A DNA stretch of 50,102 bases from an uncultured Gemmatimonadaceae bacterium (GTDB lineage Bacteria > Gemmatimonadota > Gemmatimonadetes > Gemmatimonadales > Gemmatimonadaceae). Where the stretch lies: NCBI GenBank assembly GCA_964430045.1, contig CAYSFN010000002.1, positions 1 through 50,102 on the forward strand, in the 5' to 3' direction. Positions 5,865 through 36,167 of this stretch are shown piece by piece (within the stretch, counting starts at the first letter, position 1; each line of letters opens with the position of its first letter). A program made the translations under genes and the position numbers. The notes under the pieces are model-generated. The model worked only from the letters and a program-made list of their open reading frames with translations, had not been told where the DNA came from and made no database searches.

Positions 5865-8357
5865 ATGCCAGATACTGACGTGCTGGGTTACCTCTCGTCG
5901 AAGGGGCTGAACCTCCAGAAGGCCGGCGGCTGGGAGTACCGGACACACTGCCCGGTCTGTCACGAGCAGCCGCAGAAGGGCAAGCGGGGTCGCTTCTACA
6001 TCAACGTGAACCCTGGCGCTGACGTGCCGGGGTTGCACCACTGCTTCCTCTGCGACACCAAGGGCAACCTCACCACGCTCAAGCGCTTCTTCGGCGACCC
6101 GACCTCAGAGTCGGATGAGGAGTCCTACGAGCAGTTCGAGATCTTCAAGTTGGCGGCACGCTTCTACGAGCGTCAGCTCTGTGGCTCGAAGGACCTGCCA
6201 CCGAACGAGGAGATCCTCGCGTACCTCCGGGGCCCGAACCGGATGCTCGAGGACTCGACGATCCGCAAGTTCCATCTGGGGTACGCCCCGATGGAGATCG
6301 TAAAGCCGATGGATAGCGAGGCCCGTGAGGTGCCGAGCCGGAGGCTCTACACCTACCTGAAGGAGATGGGCTGCGAGGTCAAGGCCCTGCTCGACTCAGG
6401 CCTGGTGGTGAAGCGCGGCGACCGCGTCGTGGACTCGCTCAGCGGCATGGTGGTGATCCCGTACATGGTCGCCGGCAACGTGGTCGATCTACGTGGCCGG
6501 TCATGGCCGGAACGAGAGGGCTCGCCCAAGTACAAGACGTGCTCGGGCCGCGACAGCCGGTTGTTCAACACCGACGCCATCTGGAACACCGAAGAGGTCA
6601 TCGCCACGGAAGGAGAACTTGACTGCTTGGTCATGGACCAACTAGGATACCGGGCGGTTGGCTTTCCTGGTGCTAAGTCGTTCCAGGATAACTGGTCTGG
6701 GTACTTCGCTCCACTCAAGCGCGTGTGGCTCGTCTTCGATCGCGACGTCGCTGGCACGGCGGGCATGGAGAAGATGCGCGAGGCCATAGGCCCGAAGGCT
6801 CGGCCGATCCATCTTTCCGAGAAGGGGACGAAGGTCGATCCGACGGCCTGGGTGGCGCAGGGCAATGGTGCCAAGGAGTTCGACGAGCTCCTGTCCGAGG
6901 CTCGGCGCGGCAACCTGCTCGTGAGTGTGCGCGATGCCATCGCCGAGTTCGGTGAGGTCCAGGGGCAGCCCGGCCTGAAGTTCGGCTGGGAGATGCTCGA
7001 CATGATGATCGACCCAGGCCTCCTGGCCGGTCAGCTCATGATCCCGCTGGCCAAGACGGGCTGTCTCGCCGGCGACACGGAGCTCGTCCTCGGCCGGCAG
7101 GGTGTGGGTTTCAAGATGAAACTCAGTGACGCCTACGAGAGCTGGAGCGGCCAGCGGGGGCACTGGGACCGATCGATCCCGACGAACATCCAGCGCGCCG
7201 TCGATGGCGTCGTGCGGCTCGGTGAGGTCGACGAGATCTGGGACTCGGGCGTGAAGCCGGTCTACGAGCTCCGCACGACGACTGGGCGGGCCATCACAGG
7301 GACAGCCAAGCATCCGTTCCTCACGCCCGATGGGTGGCGCAAGTTGGGCGAGCTCGAGGCGGGGGGCGGGGTCTGCGTCAACGCCGGCCTCGACAGCGCC
7401 GGGTGGATGGGCCTCGAGCAGGTGGGCGTCGAGGAGATCGAGTCGATCACGTTCCTCGGCGAGCAGCAGACCTACGACATCTCCATGAAGGACGAGCCCC
7501 ACAACTTCATGGCCAACGGGTTCGTGGTGCATAACACCGGCAAGACCCTCCTCCTGCTCAACATCATGGACATGATGCGGCGCGTTCCAGGTCAGGAGGA
7601 TCTGAAGTTCCTGTTCTTCAGCCTGGAACAGACCCGGGGTGAGTGGTGGGACAGGGCTCGGCGGATCTACCGGTTCCACAACCCGATGGCCGAAGACGAC
7701 GATGCCGAGCGGTGGTGGCAGGACAACCTCTTCATCGTCGACCGCAACCGACTGACCCAGGCGGATCTACGGTTGGCCGTCGAGGACTTCGCCTATCAGG
7801 TGGGGCAGCTCCCCGACCTGATCCTGGTCGACTACCTCGGGTACTGGGCCCGGTCGTACAAGGGCGAGCGATACGAGGCGGTGTCGAACGCGGTCATGGA
7901 CATGAAGGGAATCCTCAAGGACCTTCGTTGCCCGGGGATCGTCCCGCATCAGGTGAGTCGCATCGGCAAGGACGGCGAGGAGTTCGCGAGTGATGCCGCT
8001 CGCGATTCCGGCGTCATCGAGGAGACCGCCGACTTCGGGCTCAACCTCTGGTCCCCCGACAACCGCCTCGGCCTGCAGGAGCAAGAGAAGACCGGCAAGC
8101 TGCTGTGCCGCATCGGCAAGAGCCGTCACGGCGGACGGGGCGCGCTCATCGAGCTGCAGTTCGCTCCGCTCTCGCTGGCCATGGTCCCGAGTGGCGTGGG
8201 CAACGAGCTCGCGGCTCGGGCTCGACGCGAGTTCTTCTGGCGACAGGCTGGCGAGAACTGGGAGTCCGCCGTGCAGCGCCACCGCACCGGCCAGCATCAC
8301 GGAGCCCTCGAACCCTCTACCCGTAATGGATTCGACCAAAGGTCCTTCGACGACTGA
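5865..8357 (+). CDS. bifunctional primase-helicase (T7 gp4-like), intein-containing
   Basis: Zinc finger CPVCHEQ...HHCFLCDTKGN. TOPRIM motifs EGELDCLV and FDRDVAG. DnaB-like helicase motifs LILVDYLGY and PHQVSR. Walker A is interrupted by the intein. Confidence 0.9.
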   Translation: MPDTDVLGYLSSKGLNLQKAGGWEYRTHCPVCHEQPQKGKRGRFYINVNPGADVPGLHHCFLCDTKGNLTTLKRFFGDPTSESDEESYEQFEIFKLAARFYERQLCGSKDLPPNEEILAYLRGPNRMLEDSTIRKFHLGYAPMEIVKPMDSEAREVPSRRLYTYLKEMGCEVKALLDSGLVVKRGDRVVDSLSGMVVIPYMVAGNVVDLRGRSWPEREGSPKYKTCSGRDSRLFNTDAIWNTEEVIATEGELDCLVMDQLGYRAVGFPGAKSFQDNWSGYFAPLKRVWLVFDRDVAGTAGMEKMREAIGPKARPIHLSEKGTKVDPTAWVAQGNGAKEFDELLSEARRGNLLVSVRDAIAEFGEVQGQPGLKFGWEMLDMMIDPGLLAGQLMIPLAKTGCLAGDTELVLGRQGVGFKMKLSDAYESWSGQRGHWDRSIPTNIQRAVDGVVRLGEVDEIWDSGVKPVYELRTTTGRAITGTAKHPFLTPDGWRKLGELEAGGGVCVNAGLDSAGWMGLEQVGVEEIESITFLGEQQTYDISMKDEPHNFMANGFVVHNTGKTLLLLNIMDMMRRVPGQEDLKFLFFSLEQTRGEWWDRARRIYRFHNPMAEDDDAERWWQDNLFIVDRNRLTQADLRLAVEDFAYQVGQLPDLILVDYLGYWARSYKGERYEAVSNAVMDMKGILKDLRCPGIVPHQVSRIGKDGEEFASDAARDSGVIEETADFGLNLWSPDNRLGLQEQEKTGKLLCRIGKSRHGGRGALIELQFAPLSLAMVPSGVGNELAARARREFFWRQAGENWESAVQRHRTGQHHGALEPSTRNGFDQRSFDD
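7062..7535 (+). mobile_element. mini-intein (158 aa) in the helicase P-loop
   Basis: Begins CLAGDTELVL (block A). Has TGTAKHPFLT (block B, TxxH). Ends FVVHN, followed by +1 Thr at 7536. Excision restores Walker A AKTG-TGKT. No endonuclease domain fits in 158 aa. Confidence 0.85.
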
Positions 8358-19596: not shown

Positions 19597-19615
19597 TGGA
19601 ACGCCGTGTTCCAGT
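19597..19615 (-). promoter_or_regulatory. inverted pair TGGAAC-N5-GTTCCA containing an exact ACTGGAACA copy
   Basis: aTGGAACgccgtGTTCCAgt lies in the 44-nt gap upstream of the Thr/Ser-rich gene. The TGTTCCAGT copy (19607-19615) starts 28 nt from the start codon. Confidence 0.5.
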
Positions 19616-24482: not shown

Positions 24483-24898
24483 GCCGACACCAGGCCGGCA
24501 TCGAGGGCGTGGAGCTGGGCGTTGGTCAGGAGCCGGTAGTGGCTCGGTGCCTCGTCGATGAGGAAGTCCACGATCTCCAGGTGGCGCTCGTGGCCGTCGG
24601 GCGTGGCCAGGAACCGCTTCGTGTGCTCGAGGAGGTTGAGCACGACCACGTCGACGTAGGCCTCGAAGACGTCGTCGTCGTAGATGGCACCGCTCGCCGC
24701 GATCAGTTCGGGGCAGACGGGGGCGAGCAGTCGCTTGCCGTCCTCGCTGATCACGGGGAGGAACCCGTAGCGATGCTGCGGCTCGAGAGGCCACGAGCGG
24801 TAGGTCTCGAGGTCGACGGGGGCGACGGTGACGTGGACTTCGCCGAGGCGTTCGGTGAGCGTGTCGATGGTGTACTGCGTGCGGTCAGCGATGGTCAT
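24479..24898 (-). CDS. hypothetical protein
   Basis: Internal ATG 24898 in an ATGA overlap with the RuvB-like stop. 139 aa. Confidence 0.55.
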   Translation of the reverse strand: MTIADRTQYTIDTLTERLGEVHVTVAPVDLETYRSWPLEPQHRYGFLPVISEDGKRLLAPVCPELIAASGAIYDDDVFEAYVDVVVLNLLEHTKRFLATPDGHERHLEIVDFLIDEAPSHYRLLTNAQLHALDAGLVSA

Positions 24899-25833
24899 GC
24901 GATCTCCCGGGTGGAGGTGGGGGGTCGGCGTCCGAGAACCTTCTGGACGCCGATGGTCGTCAGGGTCCGCCCCTTGCTGGTGAGCTTCACGAAGCCGCGT
25001 CGGATGAGCAGGCGCTCGAGATCCTCGACTTCTGGCTTGCTCATCTGGGTGAGGCTCGTGATGTTGACGAGTCCGCTCTCGTCTCCGAGCTCGCGAAGCG
25101 TCTCGAGGTAGTAGCGGTGCGAGTCGGTGAGCCCCTCGTCGTCGACTCCGGCGAACTCGAGGATGCGCTCGAGCGTGAGCTCGTTGCCGGTGATGGCCAG
25201 GTCGCGAGCCTTGATGATGAAGGACGAGGCCATCCGAGGGTTGCCACGACCGGCCTGGGCCGGGCCGGTCGTGGAGTAGGGGGGGAGCTCCACGCCGGCC
25301 CGGGCGGCCATGCCCTCGACGATCAGTGCCATCTCGTCGTCGGAGTAGTCGACGAAGCGAGGGCGGGTGAGGCACCGATTGACGAGAGGGGGGATGAGCT
25401 TGGCGGGCTCGGTCGTGCCGAGGATGAAGGTGATGTGCTCCACCGGATACCGGACGCCGGTCTTGGAGACGATGGACCCGGACTCGAGGGCGTGGAGCAG
25501 CACCTCCTGGAAGGAGCGAGGCGCGTTGTGGGCCTCGTCGAGGAACACGACGCCTTGGCCGAGCTCGGTGGCGGCGTAACAGAACTCCTTCTCACCCATC
25601 GGCATCTTCAGGTCGAGGATCGGATCCCCGATGTCGGCAGCGATGATCTTCGCCAGGGTGGTCTTGCCGTATCCGGACGGCCCGGCGAGCAGGATGTGGT
25701 CGAGTACGGCGCGTCGCTGGACGGCGGACTCGATCGTGATGCGGAGGTCCCGCTTGAGCTTGTCCTGACCGATGTAATCGTCGAAGGTCTTGGCGCGGAC
25801 CAGCTCCGCGGTGGGAGTGGTGGTCGTCGACAT
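24895..25833 (-). CDS. ruvB: RuvB-like AAA+ ATPase (divergent Holliday-junction branch-migration motor)
   Basis: Collinear with RuvB: FDDYIGQDKLK, VLDHILLAGPSGYGKTTLAKIIA, VVFLDEAH, FILGTTEP, GRGNPRMAS, and the C-terminal wHTH EDLERLLIRRGFVKLTSKGR. Confidence 0.8.
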   Translation of the reverse strand: MSTTTTPTAELVRAKTFDDYIGQDKLKRDLRITIESAVQRRAVLDHILLAGPSGYGKTTLAKIIAADIGDPILDLKMPMGEKEFCYAATELGQGVVFLDEAHNAPRSFQEVLLHALESGSIVSKTGVRYPVEHITFILGTTEPAKLIPPLVNRCLTRPRFVDYSDDEMALIVEGMAARAGVELPPYSTTGPAQAGRGNPRMASSFIIKARDLAITGNELTLERILEFAGVDDEGLTDSHRYYLETLRELGDESGLVNITSLTQMSKPEVEDLERLLIRRGFVKLTSKGRTLTTIGVQKVLGRRPPTSTREIA

Positions 25834-25860: not shown

Positions 25861-25869
25861 TGTTCCAGT
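25861..25869 (-). promoter_or_regulatory. exact ACTGGAACA motif copy upstream of the RuvB-like gene
   Basis: TGTTCCAGT on the plus strand, starting 28 nt from start codon 25833. TAGACT (a TAnnnT-type hexamer) overlaps it on the coding strand. Confidence 0.5.
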
Positions 25870-25893: not shown

Positions 25894-26142
25894 CTACGAA
25901 CTCTCCAGATCGGCGAGACGGCGGTGGGCTTCGATCTGGAGAGCCGTGAGCAGGGCGTGCAGCTCGCGCGCCTCGGCGCTCCACGAGTGGGGGGGTGTCC
26001 AGAGCTCGTGGAGCGCCTTGAGGGCTTCGCGGGTGCTGGTCCGGAGTTCGGCGAGCCCGAAGGCTGTCAGCTTCGTGACGTCGACGACGTCGGGCGCGTC
26101 GACGTCGAAATCCAGACTGGCCAGCGGGTCGTCAGGATCCAT
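25894..26142 (-). CDS. hypothetical protein
   Basis: ATG 26142. 82 aa. 11-nt overlap with the upstream gene. Confidence 0.5.
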   Translation of the reverse strand: MDPDDPLASLDFDVDAPDVVDVTKLTAFGLAELRTSTREALKALHELWTPPHSWSAEARELHALLTALQIEAHRRLADLESS

Positions 26143-26359
26143 CGGTCGGTCCTCTCGGGTCTTCGAAGCAGGCGAGGGTGACCTGCACCTTGACCACGTG
26201 GCCGGTGGGCTTGTTGTCCCGCTCGAGGATCTCCAAGTCGAACTCGTAGCCCCGGTAGATGGGGCGGATCTCGGAATAGTTGTGCGACGTCCGGAGCGGG
26301 GCGAGGACCGCCTTCGCCACGTTCCAGAGGAGCGCGTCGTCTCTGCGGGCGAGGCCCAT
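26132..26359 (-). CDS. hypothetical protein
   Basis: ATG 26359 in a TGATG junction. 75 aa. Confidence 0.5.
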   Translation of the reverse strand: MGLARRDDALLWNVAKAVLAPLRTSHNYSEIRPIYRGYEFDLEILERDNKPTGHVVKVQVTLACFEDPRGPTDGS

Positions 26360-27291
26360 CAGGTGCGGGTGTGCCAGGCGAGGCGGCCCTGCGCACCCTG
26401 CATCGCCTGCAGGTGGATCTCGGCGGCACCGAGGGAGTTGCCCAGCAGTTCCTCGTACTCGGCGACCTTGGCCTTCACGCCGCTGATGCGCTCGACGAAA
26501 GCGTTGGCCACGCCAGGTGTGACGGGCTCACCCTGGAGGAGGGCGTTCATCTCGGTCGTGATCTTGATGACCTCGCCGACGGTCTCCTCCTGGTAGGCGG
26601 CTCGCAGCATCTCGCGCTGGTCCGACCCGTCGATCAGGGGGATCGGGGTGATGTTGACGCCGGCCAGACCCCGGACGGCGCCGAGCACGGCCTCGACGGC
26701 GGGGGTGTGGCTGTCGAGCACGAAGAACACGCCACCGGTGGGTCGCACCGAGAGGGCGTGGGTCGAGTGGATGACCCGGCTGATCACGTTGCGCACCGAG
26801 TCGGAGTGGAGCATGCCCTTCCAGAAGCCGAAGGACGTCTGGGCCTCACGGGCCAGGTTCATGGCCCGGGCGTGGGGGAAGTCGCCGAGGAAGGTGACGG
26901 TGAAGTCACCACCGATCGGGTGGAACTCGAGTTCGACGACCGGGTCGAACGAGAGGCGCTTGTTCTGGGCGTCGACGCGCTCGGCGACGATGTGCTTCAC
27001 GATCGAGCCCTTCTCGTGCCGGACCTTGCGGACGAGGATGTTCTCGTACTCGCCGGTCGTGCCGATGGGCTCGCGCTTGCGGGCGATCTTCGAGGTGACC
27101 CGCAGGAACGTGTCGTCGTCGCGGGGCACGCCGGGGATGAAGTTGCCGAGGCCGTGGAGCTCGAGGCGCTCGACCATGTCGGCGTGGCTGATGCGGGTGA
27201 TCTCCTCGACCGAGTAGAAGAGGATGTTGCCGAGCACGGGGACGCCGGACTTGCGGATGTCGTCGAGGTAGGACTGCAGAGTGGGGCTCAT
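26359..27291 (-). CDS. conserved-looking 310-aa hypothetical protein in the MoxR/VWA operon
   Basis: ATGA overlap at 27288-27291. Globular. Contains SVRPTGGVFFV. I cannot assign a family from memory. Confidence 0.65.
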   Translation of the reverse strand: MSPTLQSYLDDIRKSGVPVLGNILFYSVEEITRISHADMVERLELHGLGNFIPGVPRDDDTFLRVTSKIARKREPIGTTGEYENILVRKVRHEKGSIVKHIVAERVDAQNKRLSFDPVVELEFHPIGGDFTVTFLGDFPHARAMNLAREAQTSFGFWKGMLHSDSVRNVISRVIHSTHALSVRPTGGVFFVLDSHTPAVEAVLGAVRGLAGVNITPIPLIDGSDQREMLRAAYQEETVGEVIKITTEMNALLQGEPVTPGVANAFVERISGVKAKVAEYEELLGNSLGAAEIHLQAMQGAQGRLAWHTRT

Positions 27292-27743
27292 GGCGAGACT
27301 GCTGGGGGTTTGGTGGGAGCTGCGGATCGTGCGGGAGGGGTGGTGGCTCGCAGGCTGGCTCGTTCGGCGATGGCCTCTGGTCCGAGGTGGAGCACGACGC
27401 CGACCTCGGCCGCCATCTCGACGGCCATGGCCACGATGCCCGGGCTTCCGCCATCAGCGAGCCTGTGCAGAACAGCTTGGATCTTCGTGAAAGCCCTGTC
27501 CTCGGCGTTCTCGGCAGCAGCGGCACGGCTGAGTACCTGGTTGATCCGACGCTGCTTGTCTTCCATCGCCTTCGTGTGTTCGGAACGCAGCATGATCGTC
27601 TGGGACCCGAGGGCGTGCACGAGGGTGATCCTCGCCATCCGCTCCAGGTCGGCGAGGTGGACGTGGACGCCCTGCTCTTCGGCGGCGAACTGGAGCCCGA
27701 ACTTGGCCCGCTCCACTGCCTCGTCAGGGACATCCACGGTCAC
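27288..27743 (-). CDS. hypothetical protein
   Basis: GTG start in a GTGA overlap. 151 aa. Helical. Pro/Ala-rich tail. Confidence 0.55.
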   Translation of the reverse strand: MTVDVPDEAVERAKFGLQFAAEEQGVHVHLADLERMARITLVHALGSQTIMLRSEHTKAMEDKQRRINQVLSRAAAAENAEDRAFTKIQAVLHRLADGGSPGIVAMAVEMAAEVGVVLHLGPEAIAERASLRATTPPARSAAPTKPPAVSP

Positions 27744-28066
27744 GCGTCCCCTTCCTCGAGCACCTTCTCGACGATGACGTCGACCGTGGTGTCATGCACG
27801 CCACGCTTTCGTGCTGCGTATAGCGGAAGCGGATCGACCGAGGTCAACTCGCTCATGTGGATGATGACCTGGCCGGCGACGATCCGGTCCCGCAGCTTGG
27901 CCATGATCTTGACGGCCTCGGCGGAAGGGTAGTGGGGAGTGATGTAGAACTCCCGGCCGCCGGGCAACTGGGTGCTCAGCACGGACCCGTGCCCCTCGTC
28001 GATGATGAAGATGTGGGCCTGGTCGATGCAGATCAGGCTGTTGTCGCTGGTACTGACCCAGGTCAT
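27740..28066 (-). CDS. hypothetical protein
   Basis: ATGA overlap. 108 aa. Confidence 0.55.
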   Translation of the reverse strand: MTWVSTSDNSLICIDQAHIFIIDEGHGSVLSTQLPGGREFYITPHYPSAEAVKIMAKLRDRIVAGQVIIHMSELTSVDPLPLYAARKRGVHDTTVDVIVEKVLEEGDA

Positions 28067-28356
28067 GAGACCTCCTCGGTGATCGTGTCGGTGATGATGT
28101 CGTGCCAGGACCAGCCCCCGCGTGGACCCTGTCGTCGAACCTCGATGTCGTAGGTGCCGAGGGACAGAACCCTCGAGCCACCGTTGCTCTTCTGCGTGAG
28201 CTCGACCGTGCTGCCGTCCTTCGAGCGGAGGCGGCCCGAGGTCCAGCCGCCCTTCGGGCCCTTGTCGATCCGACGAAACCGAGCGTTCCAGTAGTCGACG
28301 TCATGGCTGGGCGGATCCTTGGCCCTGGGCCTGGCTGCCTTGGTCCGGGTGGCCAT
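28063..28356 (-). CDS. hypothetical basic protein
   Basis: ATG 28356. 97 aa. Basic N-terminus TRTKAARPRAK. Confidence 0.55.
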   Translation of the reverse strand: MATRTKAARPRAKDPPSHDVDYWNARFRRIDKGPKGGWTSGRLRSKDGSTVELTQKSNGGSRVLSLGTYDIEVRRQGPRGGWSWHDIITDTITEEVS

Positions 28357-28445
28357 CAGTCCCAGATCCCGCCGAGGGTGGACAGCATGGAGCTGAGGAC
28401 TGTGGAGATCGCTGCGGCGTTCGCCGATGAAGTGAAGGTGGTCAT
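28356..28445 (-). CDS. possible 29-aa hydrophobic microprotein
   Basis: ATG 28445 after AGGAGAA. TGATG junction with the next gene. Encodes MTTFTSSANAAAISTVLSSMLSTLGGIWD. Confidence 0.3.
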   Translation of the reverse strand: MTTFTSSANAAAISTVLSSMLSTLGGIWD

Positions 28446-28490
28446 TGTTCTCCTAGTCAGGTTGGGTGGTTCTCGATTCGTCGCGGGTGA

Positions 28491-30119
28491 TCAAACGCCC
28501 CGGAAGACCATGGCCGCGTCGGACCCCGACTGGAAGTCCTTGACCGTCGCCGTCTTCCCTTGACACATGGCGTGGAGCGAGCCATGAGGGCTCACCGGTC
28601 GGCCGGTGGCGGACAGACCCCACGTGGTGGCGTCCATGCGCTCCATCTCGTCGAGGTAGGCCTTCATGAAGGGTCCCGGGACGTGGCACTCGTCATCGGT
28701 CATGAAGACGACGTCAGCTCGCACGCACCCTGTGGCGGCGTGCTCCTCCTGGAGGATGCGTAGCGCTTCCTCCATCGGGGTGACGAACGAGGTGCCGCCG
28801 CCGTAGAAGACCTCAGCCACCTCGATGATCCGCTCGAACGTGAAGTCCGAAGGCTTGGTGAACGAGTAGGTGCGGAACTGGCCGGGACCACCGAAGTGGA
28901 TCACGTGCATCGTGCGCTTCTGACGTCGGGCCAGGTCGAGGAGGCAGAGCATGACGGCCTTGGACCACATCTCGCGGTCACCGCTCATCGAGCCAGATCC
29001 ATCCTCCGCGTAGATGATCCCGCCGCGAGCCAGGCGTTCCGTGCCTCGCTTGGCGTACTGCATCACGCTGTGGGTGACCAGCTTGCGGAGGAAGAGGAGC
29101 TTGAGGCCTCGGTGGTGCCGGACGCCCAGCATCTCCGATGGCAGCATCCTGAATAGATCGTCGCCCATCTCGACGTCGTAGATCTCTTCGGGGATGTTCG
29201 TGGTCTTGCGCTTCTGTTCACTGAGCATAAGGTTGCGCATCGGACCGAACTTGTCGGCGATCTTGCGGAACCGGTCGCTCTTCAGGAGCTTGGCCAGCTT
29301 GAAGCGCTCCTCGGCGTTCATGCGCTTCAGCTCGCCAGGGTCAGCTCCCCAGCAGGAGGCGAGCTCCAGGTCGGCCTGGACAGCGTCGGCGGCAGCGTTC
29401 AGGGCCTCCCGTAGTGCGATGGCCACCAGCGGGGAGGCATCGTTGAGGGCGTCGGAGAGTCCGTCGGCCTGATCCTGGACCTGGTCCTGAAGCTCGCTCA
29501 CGGCCTCGTGGGCAGCCTGCGCTGCTTCGGCGGCTGCGTCCAGGGCCGCCCTCTCGTCGTCGGTCAGCTCCCGATGTTCCGGGGTCTCGGCGGCCGCCGC
29601 GTCGAGCCGGGTCTGGAGTGCCGCCATGTCGTCGTCGGCACTCGCAGCGTCAGCCGCCGCGCCAGCCAACGCCAGCAGCGAGTCGAGGAGCTCCTGGGCC
29701 TGCTTGCGCTCCTGGTCGAGCCTGTCGAACAGGGTCTCCAGGTCCGGCTCAAGGTCGGCCGCGCTGAGCGCCGCCTGGACGTCGTCGCCCTGGGAGTACC
29801 GGCGGAGACGCTTGTACTCCGGGAGGCCATGCATCTCCTCGATGACGGCAGCGTTCACCAGGTGGGAAGGCAGGATCTGGTCGGGGGCGAGCAGTTCGGG
29901 GCTGGCCTTGAGCAGCGACCAGAAGGTGTCGTCCATGGCCGGCTCGCCAGTCTCGACTGCTTCACCGAGGGTCCGCCGTGCGGCGGCGAAGGCCGCCACA
30001 TCGGTCAGCCGCTCCACCCGCTCAGCGTCGTCCCATTTGTCGAACAGCACGACGTGCTCGTTGAGCTCGTCGAGATCGATGCCGGTGGCTTTCCACTTCT
30101 TGGGCAGGTTGAACTCCAT
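28491..30119 (-). CDS. von Willebrand factor A (VWA) domain protein, ViaA-like partner of the MoxR ATPase
   Basis: MIDAS motif DGSGSMSG, followed by MHVIHFG, YGGGTSF and VVFMTDDE. Long acidic helical N-terminal region. 542 aa. Confidence 0.85.
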   Translation of the reverse strand: MEFNLPKKWKATGIDLDELNEHVVLFDKWDDAERVERLTDVAAFAAARRTLGEAVETGEPAMDDTFWSLLKASPELLAPDQILPSHLVNAAVIEEMHGLPEYKRLRRYSQGDDVQAALSAADLEPDLETLFDRLDQERKQAQELLDSLLALAGAAADAASADDDMAALQTRLDAAAAETPEHRELTDDERAALDAAAEAAQAAHEAVSELQDQVQDQADGLSDALNDASPLVAIALREALNAAADAVQADLELASCWGADPGELKRMNAEERFKLAKLLKSDRFRKIADKFGPMRNLMLSEQKRKTTNIPEEIYDVEMGDDLFRMLPSEMLGVRHHRGLKLLFLRKLVTHSVMQYAKRGTERLARGGIIYAEDGSGSMSGDREMWSKAVMLCLLDLARRQKRTMHVIHFGGPGQFRTYSFTKPSDFTFERIIEVAEVFYGGGTSFVTPMEEALRILQEEHAATGCVRADVVFMTDDECHVPGPFMKAYLDEMERMDATTWGLSATGRPVSPHGSLHAMCQGKTATVKDFQSGSDAAMVFRGV

Positions 30120-30129
30120 GAACGCCTCC

Positions 30130-31317
30130 TCAGGCGAGGCCGCGCTGGGCCTTCAGGGCCGCGGCCTCCTCGGGGGTGAGCTGGTAGATCTCGGCCAGCG
30201 CCCGGTCGTTGAGTTTGGTGAGGGTGGAGCGAACCCGGGCGACCTTGCGGGCCCGGCGGCCGGTGCCGGCCCGGGCTTTGAGGTCGTTGATCTCCTGGCT
30301 CGCCTTCATGATCTTGGCGTGCATGTCGTTGCCCAGGCGCATGCGGGCCTCGTCGGTGTCCACCTTGTCGACTTCCCCTTCGAGTAGGCGGATGTTGCGC
30401 ATGAGGACGTCGATCTCGGTGTCGAGGGGGTTCGACAGCTCCTGCACCACTCGAGCCACCTCACCGCGCTGCTCCTGCTCCTCCCAGAGGATGTGCTCGG
30501 CGTGCATGAGGTGGTCGGTGTCGGCGACGGTGGACCCGTCCAGCCAGGCGGCGGCGCGCACGACGTCGAGCAGCTTGAAGTAGCGGCGTTCCGACGGGCG
30601 GATCTCCTTCTCGGCCAGCTTGGCCCGGATGCTGACGATGGCCTCAATGACCGACGGCGGGATGACGACGGCGCTGACCTCGGCCTGAGCTTGGGTGACC
30701 TCATCCCAGGAGAGGATCGGCGTCGGGTTCTCGGGGCGCTGCGTCGTGAGCATGCGCTCGAAGGACGAGACATCCTGGACGTGGTCGGTCAGGAGCCGGA
30801 ACACCATGCGGTCGTAGAGGGCGTTCAGGTCGTTGTCCATGGGCAGGTCGTTGGCTGCACAGATCATGAAGCGCAGCGGGATGCTCACGACGTGGCGTCC
30901 GTGGCGGTACTGGCGCTCGTTGATGGCCCAGAGCAGACCGTTCAGGATGGCCGAGTTCGCCCGCCAGACCTCGTCGAACATCGCGCCGTGGGCCGTCGGC
31001 AGGTAGCCCTCGATCTCCCGTTCGAAACGACCCTGGTCGAGGGCGACGAGGGAGGGCGGCCCGAAGACCTCCGCGGGCTCGGTGGTCTTCGCCATCAGGA
31101 TCTTGAAGAACTCGACGCCGCCGATGTAGGCCTGCAGACGGTCGAAGAGGAGGGACTTGGCCACGCCGGGCGGGCCCAGCATGAACAGGGTCGAGCAGCT
31201 CAGGATCGTCAGGATGGAGCACTCGATCTCGGTCTCGCGCTCGACGAGCTCCTGGCCGAGGACCGTCTCCAGGGCGGCGAACTTCGCCGGCAGCGAGGTG
31301 GTGGTGGCGGTGGACAT
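30130..31317 (-). CDS. MoxR-family AAA+ ATPase, RavA-like
   Basis: Collinear with my recollection of E. coli RavA: LFMLGPPGVAKSLL, TEPAEVFGP, GYLPTAHGAMFDEVWRANSAILNGLLWAINERQYRHG, RFMICAANDLP, ALYDRMVFRL. Confidence 0.9.
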   Translation of the reverse strand: MSTATTTSLPAKFAALETVLGQELVERETEIECSILTILSCSTLFMLGPPGVAKSLLFDRLQAYIGGVEFFKILMAKTTEPAEVFGPPSLVALDQGRFEREIEGYLPTAHGAMFDEVWRANSAILNGLLWAINERQYRHGRHVVSIPLRFMICAANDLPMDNDLNALYDRMVFRLLTDHVQDVSSFERMLTTQRPENPTPILSWDEVTQAQAEVSAVVIPPSVIEAIVSIRAKLAEKEIRPSERRYFKLLDVVRAAAWLDGSTVADTDHLMHAEHILWEEQEQRGEVARVVQELSNPLDTEIDVLMRNIRLLEGEVDKVDTDEARMRLGNDMHAKIMKASQEINDLKARAGTGRRARKVARVRSTLTKLNDRALAEIYQLTPEEAAALKAQRGLA

Positions 31318-31348: not shown

Positions 31349-31378
31349 ATCGTACGGAACTGGAACAGCTTAGGTCAA
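31349..31378 (-). promoter_or_regulatory. candidate promoter TTGACC-N18-TACGAT with an ACTGGAACA copy (inverted orientation) in the spacer
   Basis: The coding-strand reading is TTGACCtaagcTGTTCCAGTtccgTACGAT, about 30 nt upstream of the MoxR start codon at 31317. Confidence 0.35.
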
Positions 31379-31503: not shown

Positions 31504-31790
31504 TCGTAGCCGTACTTCCGGCTGACGGTGTGCATGAGGTCGTCGATGGTGTCGGCGCCGACGGTCTCGCGGGGCACGCCGTACACCCAGACCTGGCAGT
31601 AGAAGGCGTCGTCGGCGAACCACACCCGGCCGTTGAAGTCCCAGTCGGCGTAGCGGCACCAGCCCTCGCCGGCCCGGAGCATCTCCTCCGTGCCGGGGTC
31701 GACGGTGAAGGCGAAGTTGGACAGGCCGAACTCGGGGGTCTCGACGAGCTCGGGCGGGGGGCCGGGTGTGGTGGTCAGGTCGATCGTCAC
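31500..31790 (-). CDS. hypothetical protein
   Basis: GTG 31790 in a GTGA overlap. 96 aa. Confidence 0.5.
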   Translation of the reverse strand: MTIDLTTTPGPPPELVETPEFGLSNFAFTVDPGTEEMLRAGEGWCRYADWDFNGRVWFADDAFYCQVWVYGVPRETVGADTIDDLMHTVSRKYGYE

Positions 31791-32701
31791 GCGATCGCCT
31801 CCTCGAGGGGGTAGATGAAGGGGGAGTCGGCGGCGAGCGTGCCCTTGCGCCGCAGGGCGACGACGTGGCCGCGCTCGTCGGCGTAGCGCCGATCGTCGAG
31901 GTCGCCGTCGATCACGGGGAAGCCGGCGATCTCGTCGGGGATGGGGCGGAGCTCGCCGGTGCGCCGGTCCTTGCCGCCGGGCGTGGCGAGCACGACGGCC
32001 ACGTTGCGGCCGGCGTTGATGTTGCGCGCCATGGCGCCCTTCGAGGACTTCTCGGACCACGAGTAGGTGAGCACGTAGTTCGACGGCATCGACCGGACCG
32101 GCCGGCTCACGAGCGGGTGCTTCGTGTAGTCGTAGAAGCGCACGTCGGCGTAGTGCACCCAGAACCAGGACGGGAGCACGCGCTCCCAGCGGATGTCGCT
32201 GAAGGCGTTGAGGCGCACGCCGATGCCGCCCGGGTGTCGGCGGCGCAGCTTCTCGAGGTCGTGGACGAGCAGGATGAAGAAGGCCCGGGGGCTGTTCGTC
32301 AGCAGCATCTTGCGGGCCGAGCGCACGTCGGTGGTGCGATCCCACCGACCGTTGCCTGAGTAGGCGACGCAGCCGTCGGTGCATGCGCCGCGCTGCGGGC
32401 AAACCTCGACGCCGGCGACGTCGGCCGGGGCCAGGGCCAGACCGGCGAGGGTGAGGTGGTCGACGCCAGCGTCCTTCTCGAGCTTCGTGATGGAGGTGTT
32501 GGGCGAGAGGATCCACAGGCCCTCGGCGCCGGGCGAGGTGAGCACGGACTGCCTGAAGGCAACGCGCTGCTCGTTGAGGATGCGGATGGCCCGCTTGTGG
32601 GCCGTGGTGCCGTACGGGTACCAGGCGGGGAGGAAGGGGACGAAGTCGTTCAGGGTGGACCGGATGCGGTCCTCGAGGTTGGCGTAGGTGAAGGTGGTCA
32701 T
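31787..32701 (-). CDS. hypothetical 304-aa protein with CX6CX3C cluster
   Basis: Internal ATG 32701 in an ATGA overlap. Contains CPQRGACTDGCVAYSGNG. Looks like a conserved phage protein but I cannot name the family with confidence. Confidence 0.6.
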   Translation of the reverse strand: MTTFTYANLEDRIRSTLNDFVPFLPAWYPYGTTAHKRAIRILNEQRVAFRQSVLTSPGAEGLWILSPNTSITKLEKDAGVDHLTLAGLALAPADVAGVEVCPQRGACTDGCVAYSGNGRWDRTTDVRSARKMLLTNSPRAFFILLVHDLEKLRRRHPGGIGVRLNAFSDIRWERVLPSWFWVHYADVRFYDYTKHPLVSRPVRSMPSNYVLTYSWSEKSSKGAMARNINAGRNVAVVLATPGGKDRRTGELRPIPDEIAGFPVIDGDLDDRRYADERGHVVALRRKGTLAADSPFIYPLEEAIA

Positions 32702-33315
32702 GAGTCTCCCTGACTTCGCTTGCGGGGGTAGCAGGTCCGACAGAATCGGCTGCCACGGCTGTCGTAGCCGGTGTTCGTCGGGGTGTAGGCGTGGCCATGG
32801 ACGCACGCCGTCTTGCGGAAGTTGCGAGCTTGGAGCGAGTTGGATCGGAGGACGTTGATGCGATCGGTGGTCTGGACGAGGTGATCGGGGTTCACGCATC
32901 GGCGGGTCTGACAGATGACGTGGTCGAGGGGCAGGGCTCGCGCCGCCAGCCGATGGTCGGCGGGGTATCGACGTCGCGTCCCTCGGTAGTGCTCCCAGGC
33001 CCAGACGTGGGCGCGCCAGAGCTTCGGGCCTACTCGAAAGGCTCCGTACCCGGTGTCGAAGCAGCCGGCAGTCCAGAGCCAGCACCCACCCGTCGACACC
33101 TCCACCTTCTCGGTGAAGCGTTCGATCGGCGGTCGGACCGGCCTCAGGCCCTGTCGGTTGACCTCGGCGTCGCCGTGCTTCCGCCAGCGCTGGTAGTGGC
33201 GGGCGCACATCTTTCGAGCGCGGACCGGATCGTCGCACCCGTCAATCGAGCAAGTCGAGGCTGCGGAAGGATCCTTCGAGCTGGTCGACGAGGCACTCGC
33301 GCGGTCGCTTGTCAT
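32698..33315 (-). CDS. HNH homing-type endonuclease
   Basis: CSIDGCDDPVRARKMCARHYQRWRKHGD, followed by GCWLWTAG...GYGAF...AHVWAW...DHVICQTRRCVNPDHL, typical of actinobacterial/phage HNH_3 proteins. ATG 33315 would overlap the ligase 3' end by 74 nt. Confidence 0.8.
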   Translation of the reverse strand: MTSDRASASSTSSKDPSAASTCSIDGCDDPVRARKMCARHYQRWRKHGDAEVNRQGLRPVRPPIERFTEKVEVSTGGCWLWTAGCFDTGYGAFRVGPKLWRAHVWAWEHYRGTRRRYPADHRLAARALPLDHVICQTRRCVNPDHLVQTTDRINVLRSNSLQARNFRKTACVHGHAYTPTNTGYDSRGSRFCRTCYPRKRSQGDS

Positions 33316-34090
33316 CGCGGATCCTAAGCATGCGGGGCTGGTACAGCCGGATGGTCTTCGCCGTCCGGGTAGCATATAGGAAACGCACCTCGAGCACGTC
33401 ACCGACCTTGACGTGGGGCTTGCCGCTCAGGGAGCAGCGCCCGACGATCAGGGGCTTGCGGCTGCGCGGCGTGGGGTAGACGCCGTACTCGCAGTTGTCG
33501 TGTCCGTCGAGGCCCTTGGCCAGGACCACGACGTCGACGGTCTTCGTGAACTTCACCTTGAGGATGGCGCGCTCGGCCTGCCGGTATCGGTCGTCGGCCC
33601 GGCGGATGATGACGCCCTCGCCGCCGCCGAGGCGGATGGCCTCGAACAGCGCCCGCTTGTCGGCCTCGGTGGAAGCCTCCCGGACCAGGCGGATGCCGCC
33701 GCTGCTGAACATCACGTCGGCGATCATCTCGAGCTGCATGCGCCGGGTGGCGTACTCGTCGGTCTCGTCGAGGACGATCCGGCCGTCGGGCTGGACCACC
33801 CGGACCAGGTCGAAGACGTGGTAGGTGAAGTCGAGGAGCTCGCCGTCGAGCACGAAGGTGCCTTGGGCGGCCAGGCCGCGCAGGTCCTGCTTGATCCGCT
33901 CGCCGATCGGCTTCGTGTAGGTCTGGCCGTTGCGCCCCCAGAACCGCAGGACGGTCTTGCCGTCGACCTGCAGCGCCTCGGCCACGACCCGGTCGCCGTC
34001 GATCTTCTGCTGCCAGCGGGTGTCGGGGTTGATGGCGTGGACGCCGATCTGGCGAACGTCGAGCTCGGCGGCGAGCATCGGCTCGATCAT
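33242..34090 (-). CDS. lig: minimal ATP-dependent DNA ligase
   Basis: Nucleotidyltransferase motifs I KIDGDR, III FVLDGELL, IIIa YHVFDL, IV GEGVIIRR and V ILKVKF, plus OB-domain motif VI RMLRIRDDK. 282 aa. Confidence 0.85.
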   Translation of the reverse strand: MIEPMLAAELDVRQIGVHAINPDTRWQQKIDGDRVVAEALQVDGKTVLRFWGRNGQTYTKPIGERIKQDLRGLAAQGTFVLDGELLDFTYHVFDLVRVVQPDGRIVLDETDEYATRRMQLEMIADVMFSSGGIRLVREASTEADKRALFEAIRLGGGEGVIIRRADDRYRQAERAILKVKFTKTVDVVVLAKGLDGHDNCEYGVYPTPRSRKPLIVGRCSLSGKPHVKVGDVLEVRFLYATRTAKTIRLYQPRMLRIRDDKRPRECLVDQLEGSFRSLDLLD

Positions 34091-34650
34091 CAGAACACCA
34101 TCCCGGGGAGGCGCTCGAAGTACCAGAGCCAGGAGTCGGCGTCGACGTACCACTGGATCATCTCGGCCACGATCAGCGGCACCTCGAGGCGCTTCACCAG
34201 CGGGTCCATGTCCGGGATGTCGGGGAGCTCCTCGAGCTTGACGCCGAGCATCTCGTCCAGGGCGAGGACCAGGCGCATCGCCACTCGGTCGGCGTAGTGC
34301 TCGCGGTCGATGTCGCAGACGGCGATGCCGACCGCGACCGGCACGATCGGGTCTTCCTTCCAGCGGTCACCGATCAGGCGGCCGCCGGGGTGCTCGATGA
34401 TGAAGCGGTTGATCAGCAGGGTGTGGATGTTGGCGACCGGGAGTCGGACCACCCGATTGATGTTCCACATCGCCGGGGTCCAGGTCTTCTCCTGGGCGTC
34501 CACGATGCGGGGGCCGTGGTAGGCGCTGGTCGGCAGCTCGACCACCCGACCGACGATGTCGCCGGACTTGGGTTGGCGGTCGGGCTGCATCGTGATGCGA
34601 ACGGTGTCGCCGAGACCGGCGATCGCCTTGAACTCGAGAGGCGTCATCAT
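34090..34650 (-). CDS. hypothetical protein (Ku-ligase operon)
   Basis: TGATG junctions on both sides. 186 aa. Confidence 0.6.
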   Translation of the reverse strand: MMTPLEFKAIAGLGDTVRITMQPDRQPKSGDIVGRVVELPTSAYHGPRIVDAQEKTWTPAMWNINRVVRLPVANIHTLLINRFIIEHPGGRLIGDRWKEDPIVPVAVGIAVCDIDREHYADRVAMRLVLALDEMLGVKLEELPDIPDMDPLVKRLEVPLIVAEMIQWYVDADSWLWYFERLPGMVF

Positions 34651-34967: not shown

Positions 34968-35235
34968 CGGGCAGCCGATCCTCGAGCTCGTAGGGCACCC
35001 ACTGGTGCATCGGGAGGACCTCCCGGCGAGCCAGCGTGTCGGTGCGCACACCCTCGAGGCGCGCTGCCAGTTGGAAGCACGCCGTGATCTCGATCGGCGT
35101 GGCCGAGCGTGCACTCAGGCCGGCGAGAGCCTCCAGCAACAGCGCTCGCTCGCGAGGCCGAAGCTGGAGGCTGACGTCGGGGATGCCTTGGGGGACGGGA
35201 TTCCGCATCCACCCCTGGAAGATGCCGCCTGCCAT
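34957..35235 (-). CDS. hypothetical protein (Ku-ligase operon)
   Basis: Internal ATG 35235 in a TGATG junction with the Ku stop. 92 aa. Confidence 0.5.
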   Translation of the reverse strand: MAGGIFQGWMRNPVPQGIPDVSLQLRPRERALLLEALAGLSARSATPIEITACFQLAARLEGVRTDTLARREVLPMHQWVPYELEDRLPDGD

Positions 35236-36098
35236 CAGGCGGCCTTGACGGCGGCCTTCTTGGCGGCACGCTTGCGGGGCTTCTTCGCCGGCTTGGTCGT
35301 GGCCAGCATGGCGGCGAGCGCCGCCGTCGGGTCGTCGGCCCGGACCTTCGAGACGGGCTCGGGCTTCGGCGCGTTCGGGTCGCTGACCGCCCGCTTCAGA
35401 TCCTCGACGGCCTCGACCTCGCGGTTGGCCCACTCGTCGGGGACGAAGGGCTGGGGGTCGGCGCCGGCGAACTGCTGGAGCTGGGCGAGCAGGCCGGCGT
35501 CGTACTCGGCGTGCTGGACCTGCACGTCGTGGAAGCTGCCGGGCCGGATGAGCTCGACCAGGGTGAGCATGCCCTCGCGGTTCATGATGCGGTACATCTT
35601 CTGCTTCGAGCGCATCGTGAGCTCGCAGACGAACGCGAGGTTCGAGTCGAGCACGAGGTCGCAGAACATCGAGTACAGGCCGGGGTTGGTCTGCGGCTGG
35701 ATGCGGTAGACCGAGCCGGCGGCGAAGGTGTTCGCCTCGACCTCCTCGGCCTTGAAGACCTGGACGTTGGCGATGCCCTTCGGCACCTCCGTCTCGCCGA
35801 GGACCTCGATCTGCTCGGTCGTGACCTTGAGCAGGGTGCCGTCGACCTTCACGGCGCGGTGGGCGTCGGAGCTCGAGAACGGGCCGTGCTCGGGGTTGTG
35901 CGTGCAGGCGTACTGCTGCTTGAGCGGCTGCGCGTCCTCGCAGGTCGGGCAGACGATCTTCAGCTCCTTCGGGTCCGAGATCACGGCCGGCAGGATGTTG
36001 ACCGGGATGGTGCTCACGCCGAAGAAGGTGAGCATGACGTTCGAGGAGACCGAGCGCGGGTTCTTGTGCTCGTCGGTGGTATCGGTGGTGGTGGACAT
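35235..36098 (-). CDS. ku: Ku-like DNA end-binding protein
   Basis: ATG 36098 after GGAGGA. LTFFGVSTIPVNILPAV matches the bacterial Ku N-terminal ISFGLVxIPV strand. CPTC zinc-ribbon insertion at the position of the C-x2-C in M. tuberculosis Ku. YRIQPQ...LYSMFCDLV...MLTLVELIRP core. Lys-rich tail KPAKKPRKRAAKKAAVKAA. Confidence 0.75.
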   Translation of the reverse strand: MSTTTDTTDEHKNPRSVSSNVMLTFFGVSTIPVNILPAVISDPKELKIVCPTCEDAQPLKQQYACTHNPEHGPFSSSDAHRAVKVDGTLLKVTTEQIEVLGETEVPKGIANVQVFKAEEVEANTFAAGSVYRIQPQTNPGLYSMFCDLVLDSNLAFVCELTMRSKQKMYRIMNREGMLTLVELIRPGSFHDVQVQHAEYDAGLLAQLQQFAGADPQPFVPDEWANREVEAVEDLKRAVSDPNAPKPEPVSKVRADDPTAALAAMLATTKPAKKPRKRAAKKAAVKAA

Positions 36099-36113
36099 GG
36101 CGTCCTCCGTTTC

Positions 36114-36128
36114 TGTTCCAGTTTCCAG
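36114..36128 (-). promoter_or_regulatory. exact ACTGGAACA copy plus an adjacent CTGGAA half-site, in the Ku leader
   Basis: The coding strand reads CCTGGAAACTGGAACAgaaacGGAGGAcgccATG. The motif ends 16 nt from the start codon. Confidence 0.5.
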
Positions 36129-36138
36129 GGGTGGTGTG

Positions 36139-36167
36139 ACGGTACCGAAGAGGTGTGACACCGTCAA
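36139..36167 (-). promoter_or_regulatory. candidate promoter TTGACG-N17-TACCGT for the Ku-ligase operon
   Basis: Coding-strand hexamers at 36167-36162 and 36144-36139. Direct repeat GGTGTGAC x2 in and around the spacer. Confidence 0.35.

Follow-up and report, generated by a model that had tools for sequence, protein, structure and literature searches.

What does a MoxR-class ATPase do when it is paired with a VWA protein on a large mobile element, and which other proteins belong with the pair? The question is raised by a unit of nine tightly packed open reading frames (ORFs) – the ATPase gene first, an ORF of 82 amino acids (aa) last – on the minus strand at positions 25894-31317 of a 50,102-nucleotide (nt) stretch of contig CAYSFN010000002.1 (assembly GCA_964430045.1, uncultured Gemmatimonadaceae bacterium), here called the window. 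A sequence-only reading had taken the unit for a nine-component system of a phage-like early region, in which a RavA-like ATPase and a ViaA-like VWA protein act with a fixed set of small partners. All nine ORFs are present on the minus strand at the sizes then given. Comparison with related loci leads to a smaller unit: the module is a three-gene set with a client to be found, not a nine-gene novelty, and its third member is a protein of the Pfam family DUF6744. In gene order the three are:

30130-31317, minus strand: MoxR-class AAA+ ATPase of 395 aa, with a RavA-like AAA+ module and a helical C-terminal region of about 100 aa
28491-30119, minus strand: ViaA-like VWA protein of 542 aa, with a helical domain at the N terminus, a long acidic helical hairpin and, at the C terminus, a VWA domain whose MIDAS is complete
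26359-27291, minus strand: DUF6744 protein of 310 aa (Pfam PF20529), the conserved third component

The ATPase has the features that define the MoxR class – a single AAA_5-type AAA+ module, both Walker motifs (A and B) and an AAA lid. Its Pfam matches are to bpMoxR (6e-44), AAA_5 (3e-16) and AAA_lid_8 (2e-11), and both motifs are intact (Walker A, GPPGVAKS, at residue 48; Walker B, MFDE, at residue 113). The NCBIfam RavA model (NF010054) is matched at 8e-64 over profile positions 4-301 of 498, with 216 bits against an equivalog cutoff of 681, and Escherichia coli RavA in the Protein Data Bank (PDB 3nbx) at E 2e-57 over RavA residues 11-292. Judged by these matches, E. coli RavA is the nearest characterised relative of the window ATPase. 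The near block-for-block alignment with RavA that had been claimed earlier holds for the AAA+ module and not for the rest of RavA: the LARA domain is absent, the protein stopping at residue 395 with the RavA profile past 301 unmatched. A PADLOC search returned nothing for the ATPase, nor for any of the other proteins except the VWA protein. RavA-like ATPases are rare in the isolate-phage database (30 of 50,697 records), and those 30 include both bacterial phages that carry DUF6744. ATPase matches labelled 'Campylobacter phage' were set aside, the record being unverified and the stretch, of 51% guanine plus cytosine (GC), lacking DUF6744. That stretch (MG065691.1 1-26328, 'UNVERIFIED: Campylobacter phage A11a') holds a RavA-like gene 41% identical to the window's; it is unlike Campylobacter phage DNA, and the record may be misassigned.

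The gene for the VWA protein begins 10 nt after that for the ATPase. A Pfam search of the 542 residues gave no match; the NCBIfam ViaA model (NF008230) is matched at 1e-15, with 58 bits against a cutoff of 500, and PHROGs returns phrog_24053. The arrangement is that of ViaA – the VWA domain with its MIDAS is C-terminal, and the gene comes straight after that of the ATPase – and homologues in other phages cover more of the ViaA model, yet also score below its cutoff. The description of the two proteins as a RavA-like and ViaA-like pair is thus upheld, as is that of the MIDAS as intact: the DGSGS motif occupies residues 373-377, and D373, S375, S377, T443 and D475 are invariant in an alignment of 28 homologous sequences. 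The acidic helical part that had been noted is likewise real (residues 121-260; 34 D+E versus 7 K+R). An AlphaFold2 model, with a predicted local distance difference test score (pLDDT) of 86.8, has a helical N-terminal domain, a hairpin at about 135-256 and a VWA domain at about 365-541, which reaches residue 541 of 542; homologues measure 480-660 aa, intein carriers excluded. Foldseek searches with this model returned integrin I-domains, the MDN1 MIDAS domain and NorD (9qhe_G), while the VWA alignment, used as a profile against the PDB, yielded no useful match. A PADLOC match to JetC was dismissed as coiled-coil noise.

The third protein matches PF20529 at 7e-32 (111 bits, cutoff 27), residues 18-297 aligning with profile positions 20-301 of 314. 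In an exhaustive profile search DUF6744 had 2807 cluster representatives at E<=1e-3 (about 2,800 at 50% identity). Nearly all of the 150 matches listed are single-domain proteins of about 300-330 aa, and among 41 members searched at E<=1 no second Pfam family was common to more than one. The AlphaFold2 model (pLDDT 86; predicted template modelling score 0.76) begins with an alpha/beta region that contains a four-stranded meander sheet, continues with a further small alpha/beta unit and ends in a long helical hairpin (residues 223-309). Neither the sequence profile nor Foldseek gave a meaningful match in the PDB (best by fold: E 0.024, template modelling (TM) score 0.14); resemblances to Rad50 coiled coils, DnaK substrate-binding domains and VirB8-like folds were rejected as chance-level matches (TM about 0.1-0.2). 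The sole structural relatives are uncharacterised viral proteins, matched in BFVD at about 1e-15 and including a protein of the haloarchaeal virus HVTV-1. A literature search for DUF6744, PF20529 and bpMoxR found no paper, and in the literature searched the earlier statement that the function is not established holds.

Enough flanking sequence was available for 19 loci: the window, related loci L001-L006, L008-L010, L015, L016, L019 and L020, and five plasmids. In all 19, homologous MoxR and VWA genes are no more than about 11 kb from DUF6744. The trio is found in two isolates, Moorella phage MTATph1 and Bacillus phage 0305phi8-36 (DUF6744 is gp46, with gp63 and gp66), on metagenomic phage-like contigs of the window's high-GC clade, on a 196-kb contig of 29% GC binned to Ignavibacterium, on one further divergent contig, and on a 137-kb IMG/VR contig, found by ATPase scan, where ligase, MoxR, VWA and DUF6744 genes are adjacent. 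Nor is the module specific to phages: tblastn placed DUF6744 on 16 plasmids of 97-264 kb, and on all five inspected (from Nocardia, Streptomyces, Rubrobacter, Brevibacillus and Alicyclobacillus) the three genes are adjacent. One of these, Nocardia farcinica pNF1, is mobilizable (MOBP relaxase) and carries the trio after genes for the conjugative coupling protein, an SCO6880-family protein and a DUF4913 protein; the trio is also present on plasmids typed non-mobilizable.

The order of the genes varies – ATPase-VWA-DUF6744 in Actinomycetota, DUF6744-ATPase-VWA in Bacillota, where one to three small ORFs at times separate DUF6744 from the ATPase – and so does their distance, which reaches 11 kb in phage 0305phi8-36. 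Variation of this kind points to selection on co-occurrence rather than to inherited synteny alone. The three proteins also diverge together: across loci their identities to the window proteins co-vary (r 0.82-0.92, n=10). Beyond the bacterial elements, DUF6744 homologues occur in the haloarchaeal Druskaviridae HVTV-1, HVTV-2, HCTV-1, HCTV-5 and HCTV-16 (Pfam 3e-19; Foldseek 9e-16), a family in which AAA+/VWA genes, called cobST, are reported throughout (PMC8651126). Other searches added little: megablast of the region against isolate phages gave no match, locus scans of IMG/VR and GTDB genomes based on DUF6744, as a single protein or as an alignment, confirmed no relatives or met with too much divergence in the alignment, and a word-indexed homologue search with the DUF6744 profile contributed little. 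Stretches with recurring DUF6744 neighbours are L001 2816-6290, L014 5957-10966, L008 10001-12504, L002 690-4359 and L025 8660-10846.

How might three such proteins work? In MoxR/VWA pairs a hexameric ATPase engages the VWA protein, the MIDAS engages the client, and ATP hydrolysis remodels the client (PMC13036017; PMC7159879), the precedents being RavA-ViaA, CbbQ-CbbO, CoxD-CoxE and the NorQ-NorD structures. Since all residues for this chemistry are conserved, we propose that the trio is one machine: a three-gene AAA+ remodelling machine of large mobile elements, composed of a RavA-type MoxR ATPase, a ViaA-type VWA/MIDAS protein and DUF6744, a reading to which we give an even chance. According to this proposal, which is modelled on RavA-ViaA, NorQ-NorD and CbbQ-CbbO, the ATPase would form a hexameric ring, the VWA protein would dock onto it with its MIDAS gripping an acidic residue of a partner, and ATP hydrolysis would pull or twist through the VWA protein and so remodel the client complex. 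DUF6744 would either serve as an adaptor, specific to the element, by which the client is chosen, or be that client.

The kind of client is suggested by the neighbourhood of the trio. In phages it lies among genes for replication, recombination and repair (ligase, Ku and a RuvB-like or clamp-loader-like AAA+ protein in the high-GC clade; PolIII alpha, single-stranded DNA-binding protein (SSB) and RecA in L008; a processivity factor and uracil-DNA glycosylase (UDG) in phage 0305phi8-36), and on plasmids near dnaN, helicase or primase genes (on the Rubrobacter plasmid, those for a RepB primase and a large helicase), which argues for a client linked to replication or establishment. Such a client would be a protein assembly needed for replication of the element or for its establishment in a new cell, not a part of the virion. 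On the Alicyclobacillus plasmid dnaN is directly upstream of the trio, as it is directly downstream of the MoxR/VWA pair in Aphanizomenon phage CL131. UDG and Cpn10/GroES genes follow DUF6744 both in the Ignavibacterium-binned contig and in phage 0305phi8-36.

Several points weigh against the proposal of a three-part machine. We infer, rather than observe, the physical association of the three proteins, the role of DUF6744 and the class of target, and the DUF6744 fold yields no functional clue. The replication context counts for little, since replication genes make up most of the non-structural part of large phage genomes, and on pNF1 the trio adjoins conjugation genes, not replication genes. 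Phage CL131 (L012) has a MoxR/VWA pair and no DUF6744 in its whole genome, and locus L021 has a pair without DUF6744 within 10 kb on either side: DUF6744 is therefore not obligatory for this type of ATPase and VWA protein. CL131 may use a different third partner in its place; directly upstream of its pair is gp148 (L012 758-1600), which carries LPD29, a large-polyvalent-protein-associated domain. In HVTV-1, the one Druskaviridae genome inspected, the AAA+/VWA pair is 15 kb from DUF6744 and its AAA+ protein is of a different, GvpN/CobS-like subfamily. Finally, many of the 19 loci are from one clade, so that the number of independent lineages is nearer 8-10.

A more specific form of the proposal can be stated, as a long shot: DUF6744 could be the dedicated third subunit of an ancient mobile-element machine that loads, unloads or extracts ring-shaped or tightly bound proteins on DNA. 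Such a machine, driven by the MoxR/VWA motor, would be common to large phages, large plasmids and haloarchaeal viruses and would act during establishment and replication of the element. Its conceivable clients, named here with the same strong reserve, would include Ku trapped after end joining, sliding clamps, and RuvB-like or clamp-loader-like assemblies. Eukaryotes extract Ku by means of AAA+ proteins, and a load/unload machine would be the prokaryotic counterpart.

An alternative is that the trio inserts a metal or cofactor, either by helping a CobS/CobT-like cobaltochelatase or by maturing an element-encoded metalloenzyme such as ribonucleotide reductase (RNR). There is precedent: metal insertion is the task of many MoxR/VWA pairs (PMC13036017), the pair of phage 0305phi8-36 was annotated in 2007 as a metalloprotein chaperonin, and the AAA+/VWA pairs of Druskaviridae and of many phages are annotated cobST and tied to B12-dependent RNR (PMC8651126). 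Moreover, in both MTATph1 and HVTV-1 a few small genes separate DUF6744 from the gene for the RNR large subunit, which lies upstream. The window proteins do not fit this picture. Orthology to CobS/CobT had been put forward by the sequence-only reading as grounds for abandoning its own proposal; neither protein matches a CobS, CobS_N, CobT or CobT_C model in the window (E<=0.01), and the same is true of the Moorella, Bacillus, L008 and CL131 homologues (E<=0.001), the window and bacterial-phage proteins matching the RavA and ViaA models instead. Even HVTV-1 reaches just 26 bits against CobS, with a cutoff of 558. No RNR was found among the scanned window ORFs and none is annotated near the trio on the five plasmids; nor is there a CobN-sized gene in the window. 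We regard metal insertion as highly unlikely.

Could the trio be an assembly chaperone instead, acting on the virion tail or capsid in phages – as p618/p892 of Acidianus two-tailed virus (ATV) would – and on the transfer apparatus on plasmids? Here the ATV precedent is joined by what has been proposed for jumbo phages of group 2.2 (PMC7824862), a search with the window ATPase gave that of ATV as a distant match, the module is confined to large elements, a GroES/Cpn10 gene is found near DUF6744 in phage 0305phi8-36 and in L008, and the pNF1 trio is next to conjugation genes. In the loci examined, however, the trio is never among structural genes, its setting being in every case a block of replication or metabolism genes; plasmids typed non-mobilizable carry it too, and it lacks the peptidase fusion of the jumbo-phage version. 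A role in assembly is, on this balance, very improbable.

The plasmids bear on a further possibility, namely counter-defence or host takeover, in which the trio would remodel or inactivate a host complex (defence, respiratory or membrane) on entry to a new cell, much as RavA-ViaA acts on Nuo and Frd. The module is common to phages and plasmids, both of which must establish in naive hosts. On the Alicyclobacillus plasmid the genes no more than 6 kb away include one of the AcrIIA9 family and those for PcfJ, SSB and a large DEAD/DEAH helicase, a mix that we take to be typical of leading-region establishment genes. The LPD29 polyvalent-protein domain upstream of the CL131 ATPase and the hotspot of orphan small genes embedded in the window's unit (described below) point in the same direction. 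Against this, PADLOC gave no noteworthy match, the three proteins have no effector or enzymatic domain and are well conserved rather than fast-diversifying, and a survey of leading-region anti-defence genes contains no MoxR or VWA proteins. Counter-defence seems to us unlikely.

The proposed three-gene machine can be set beside systems already known. RavA-ViaA is closest: RavA is the best sequence and PDB match of the AAA+ module and ViaA the best family match of the VWA protein, the order is ATPase then VWA, and in both the VWA domain with its MIDAS is C-terminal to a helical part. The differences are that the window proteins score far under the equivalog cutoffs (216 versus 681 bits; 58 versus 500 bits), that the ATPase lacks LARA, the domain by which RavA binds LdcI, so that no LdcI cage is expected, that the window type is carried by phages and plasmids whereas RavA-ViaA is on enterobacterial chromosomes, and that DUF6744 is a constant partner here, while the RavA-ViaA papers found describe a two-gene ravA-viaA operon without it. 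The MoxR-vWA ternary conflict systems (PMC7159879) likewise consist of a chaperone pair plus a conserved third protein, and the window ATPase matches their bpMoxR model; the third protein of the window is DUF6744, however, and not VMAP, iSTAND, a beta-propeller or FtsH-like (no Pfam match of this kind was obtained for any of the nine proteins), its vWA protein lacks C-terminal effector domains, and those systems are on chromosomes of multicellular bacteria whereas the trio is on mobile elements.

Among viral pairs, cobST is the most widespread: like the window pair it combines AAA+ and VWA-MIDAS proteins, occurs across tailed viruses, and in its Druskaviridae version co-occurs with DUF6744, but the window pair and the bacterial-phage and plasmid homologues tested have no match to a CobS or CobT model. 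ATV p618/p892 is also a virus-encoded MoxR and VWA pair (p618, 28% identity over 48% of the query), though tied to the virion and to tail development, whereas the window genes stand in a non-structural context. Jumbo phages of group 2.2 encode a MoxR-vWA pair whose vWA protein is fused to a metallopeptidase; the window VWA protein has no peptidase, and DUF6744 is added. NorQ-NorD and CbbQ-CbbO share the two-protein architecture, NorD being among the structural matches of the VWA model, and for these the mechanism is solved: the VWA domain inserts a finger into the pore of the ATPase. What these pairs act on are known metabolic enzymes with genes next to those of the pair, whereas no such enzyme is linked to the window pair.

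What, then, of the remaining ORFs of the unit? They are, in gene order:

28356-28445, minus strand: p29, 29 aa, hydrophobic, with a grand average of hydropathy (GRAVY) of 0.74, third-position GC of 0.83 and AGGAG upstream
28063-28356, minus strand: p97, 97 aa, basic, isoelectric point (pI) 10.2, a lineage-restricted accessory gene
27740-28066, minus strand: p108, 108 aa, a variable accessory gene
27288-27743, minus strand: p151, 151 aa, an orphan ORF whose third-position GC (0.78) is the lowest of the nine
26132-26359, minus strand: p75, 75 aa, a variable accessory gene
25894-26142, minus strand: p82, 82 aa, acidic

The hydrophobic nature of the 29-aa peptide and the basic nature of the 97-aa protein are as had been described. 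The conservation of these ORFs is another matter. Co-conservation of the downstream genes with the pair, on which the nine-gene reading depended, is strong for the 310-aa protein; it fails for p29, p151, p108 and p75, and the 97-aa protein is found in three loci. Neither p29 nor p151 has a homologue in any of about 20 related loci, the closest relative L019 (about 77% protein identity) included, and these two are the only ones of the nine ORFs for which support from conservation is missing; that p29 is a gene at all is doubtful, and it is outside the conserved module. Homologues of p97 are restricted to L019 (64%), L006 (42%) and L004 (36%), and p97 matches no Pfam or PHROGs family. The sole homologue of p108 is the N-terminal part of a 211-aa ORF in L019 (51%), and that of p75 is also in L019 (83%). 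The exception is p82: in all nine high-GC-clade loci (9/9) there is one family with conserved motifs, always between the DUF6744 and RuvB-like genes, and p82 is a clade-specific fourth conserved member of the module in that clade.

The interval between the VWA and DUF6744 genes (27288-28445 in the window) is filled in L004-L006, L009, L010, L016 and L019 by different, unrelated small ORFs, a pattern that identifies it, on comparison of these loci, as a gene-turnover hotspot inside a conserved frame. Directly upstream of DUF6744 in five relatives is a family of 165-228 aa that the window does not have; the possibility that p151 or p108 is a diverged member of it was tested and rejected. We conclude that p29, p97, p108, p151 and p75 are interchangeable cargo, a variable filler.

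For the system of nine components with fixed small partners there remain the tight translational coupling across all nine ORFs (intergenic distances in gene order: +10, +45, -1, -4, -4, -4, -1 and -11 nt) and the copies of ACTGGAACA that bracket the unit in both the window and L019. Set against these is the absence of 5/7 downstream ORFs from most or all related loci, where unrelated small genes fill the same slots, and we consider the probability of such a system to be close to negligible. The borders themselves are short: a 57-nt gap upstream and a 60-nt gap downstream, each containing one ACTGGAACA copy. The coupled array starts further upstream, with Ku, an ATP-dependent ligase, a GP88-family gene and two small ORFs nearly touching, and no intrinsic terminator was found on the coding (minus) strand between 24000 and 34500. 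The nine-gene "operon" is thus a segment of a longer co-directional block whose edges are two short gaps. Third-position GC of all nine ORFs (0.78-0.95) matches that of clear genes elsewhere in the window (66% GC).

The two gaps contain the following candidate elements:

31349-31378, minus strand: sigma-70-like promoter candidate, TTGACC and TACGAT spaced by 18 nt, within the 57-nt gap ahead of the ATPase gene
31359-31367: inverted ACTGGAACA copy between the -35 and -10 hexamers of the ATPase promoter candidate
25861-25869, minus strand: forward ACTGGAACA copy in the 60-nt downstream gap, 27 nt upstream of the ATG of the RuvB-like gene, its position kept in L019

The promoter-like hexamers and the ACTGGAACA copy that the unit was said to possess are therefore both there, although as a promoter the site is weak evidence alone: one sigma-70-like site was found in the upstream gap versus 0.5 expected. 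In L019 the string TGTTCCAGTTCCGYACGAT is kept at the candidate promoter and the -35 hexamer is not. ACTGGAACA itself has seven exact copies in the window versus 0.19 expected, and 22 copies with <=1 mismatch versus 5.6 expected. The exact 9-mers are at 8692, 19607, 20355, 25861, 31359, 36114 and 48672 in the window, and at 2058, 5875 and 11413 in L019, with conservation of the positions upstream of the Ku, ATPase and RuvB-like genes. The RuvB-like gene, the Ku gene and a gene that begins near 19570 each have a forward copy 15-27 nt upstream of the ATG, and the copy at 19607 sits within the palindrome TGGAACAcggcGTTCCA. In this phage group ACTGGAACA probably serves as a promoter or operator.

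The genes on either side of the unit are:

24895-25833, minus strand: RuvB-like AAA+ protein of 312 aa (Pfam RuvB_N and RuvB_C; NCBIfam RuvB 4e-46, below cutoff)
33242-34153, minus strand: ATP-dependent DNA ligase (Pfam DNA_ligase_A_M), a syntenic upstream neighbour in the high-GC clade
35235-36167, minus strand: Ku homologue (Pfam Ku 5e-8), present in L004, L005, L006, L010, L019 and L020

The RuvB-like gene, whose PHROGs label is clamp loader, is a syntenic neighbour in the high-GC clade; membership of the module is not implied. Ku and ligase form an end-joining pair just upstream of the ATPase, a position kept in most high-GC relatives, and a tblastn search with the Ku protein against the 50,697 isolate-phage records gave no match. 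The annotated TTG start of Ku is probably wrong, the true start being an ATG near 36095 with a GGAGGA ribosome-binding site. Between ligase and ATPase a 483-aa ORF (31787-33238) matches Pfam GP88 over its C-terminal 220 residues (7e-32); its long N-terminal extension may be an over-extended ORF call, the L019 version having 302 aa.

Other genes of the window encode a BCS1-like AAA ATPase, a PD-(D/E)XK nuclease, an AAA_24 protein, a HerA-like ATPase, UDG, and a primase-DnaB helicase (5865-8357) that carries an intein. The best matches of the BCS1-like protein (473 aa; 882-2303), at about 32% identity, are in jumbo actinophages, namely Rhodococcus, Microbacterium and Arthrobacter phages of 140-195 kb, which supports a large actinophage-like origin of the window. 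Relatives of the window are on contigs of up to 110-137 kb; about 30 scanned window ORFs matched no structural-protein family, and a scan of the window for tRNAs found none. We take the window to belong to a large phage, or to an element resembling one, whose host is of high GC and probably an actinobacterium. Inteins are common among these phages: the MoxR ATPase of one relative (666 aa) has one, VWA proteins of several relatives measure about 900 aa, one with a LAGLIDADG domain, and the RuvB-like protein of one relative is, at 641 aa, twice the usual length, which suggests an insertion (intein-linked stretches in relatives: L004 3215-5215, L004 11802-13727 and L005 5826-8531). That MoxR and VWA homologues of relatives carry inteins suggests that both genes are conserved and of importance to the element.

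Phage-borne MoxR/VWA pairs have been on record since 2007, usually under the label 'metal chaperone' or 'cobST' and without a known client; of the link to DUF6744, and of its spread over phages, plasmids and archaeal viruses, no description was found in the literature searched. The tie between a RavA/ViaA-type pair and one constant partner corrects that annotation for this clade and gives the uncharacterised DUF6744 its first functional context. It also offers tractable systems in which to find the client – gp46, gp63 and gp66 of phage 0305phi8-36, Nocardia pNF1, and the Streptomyces and Brevibacillus plasmids. The confinement of the trio to large phages and plasmids hints at a need that is tied to the size of the replicon or to entry into a new host.

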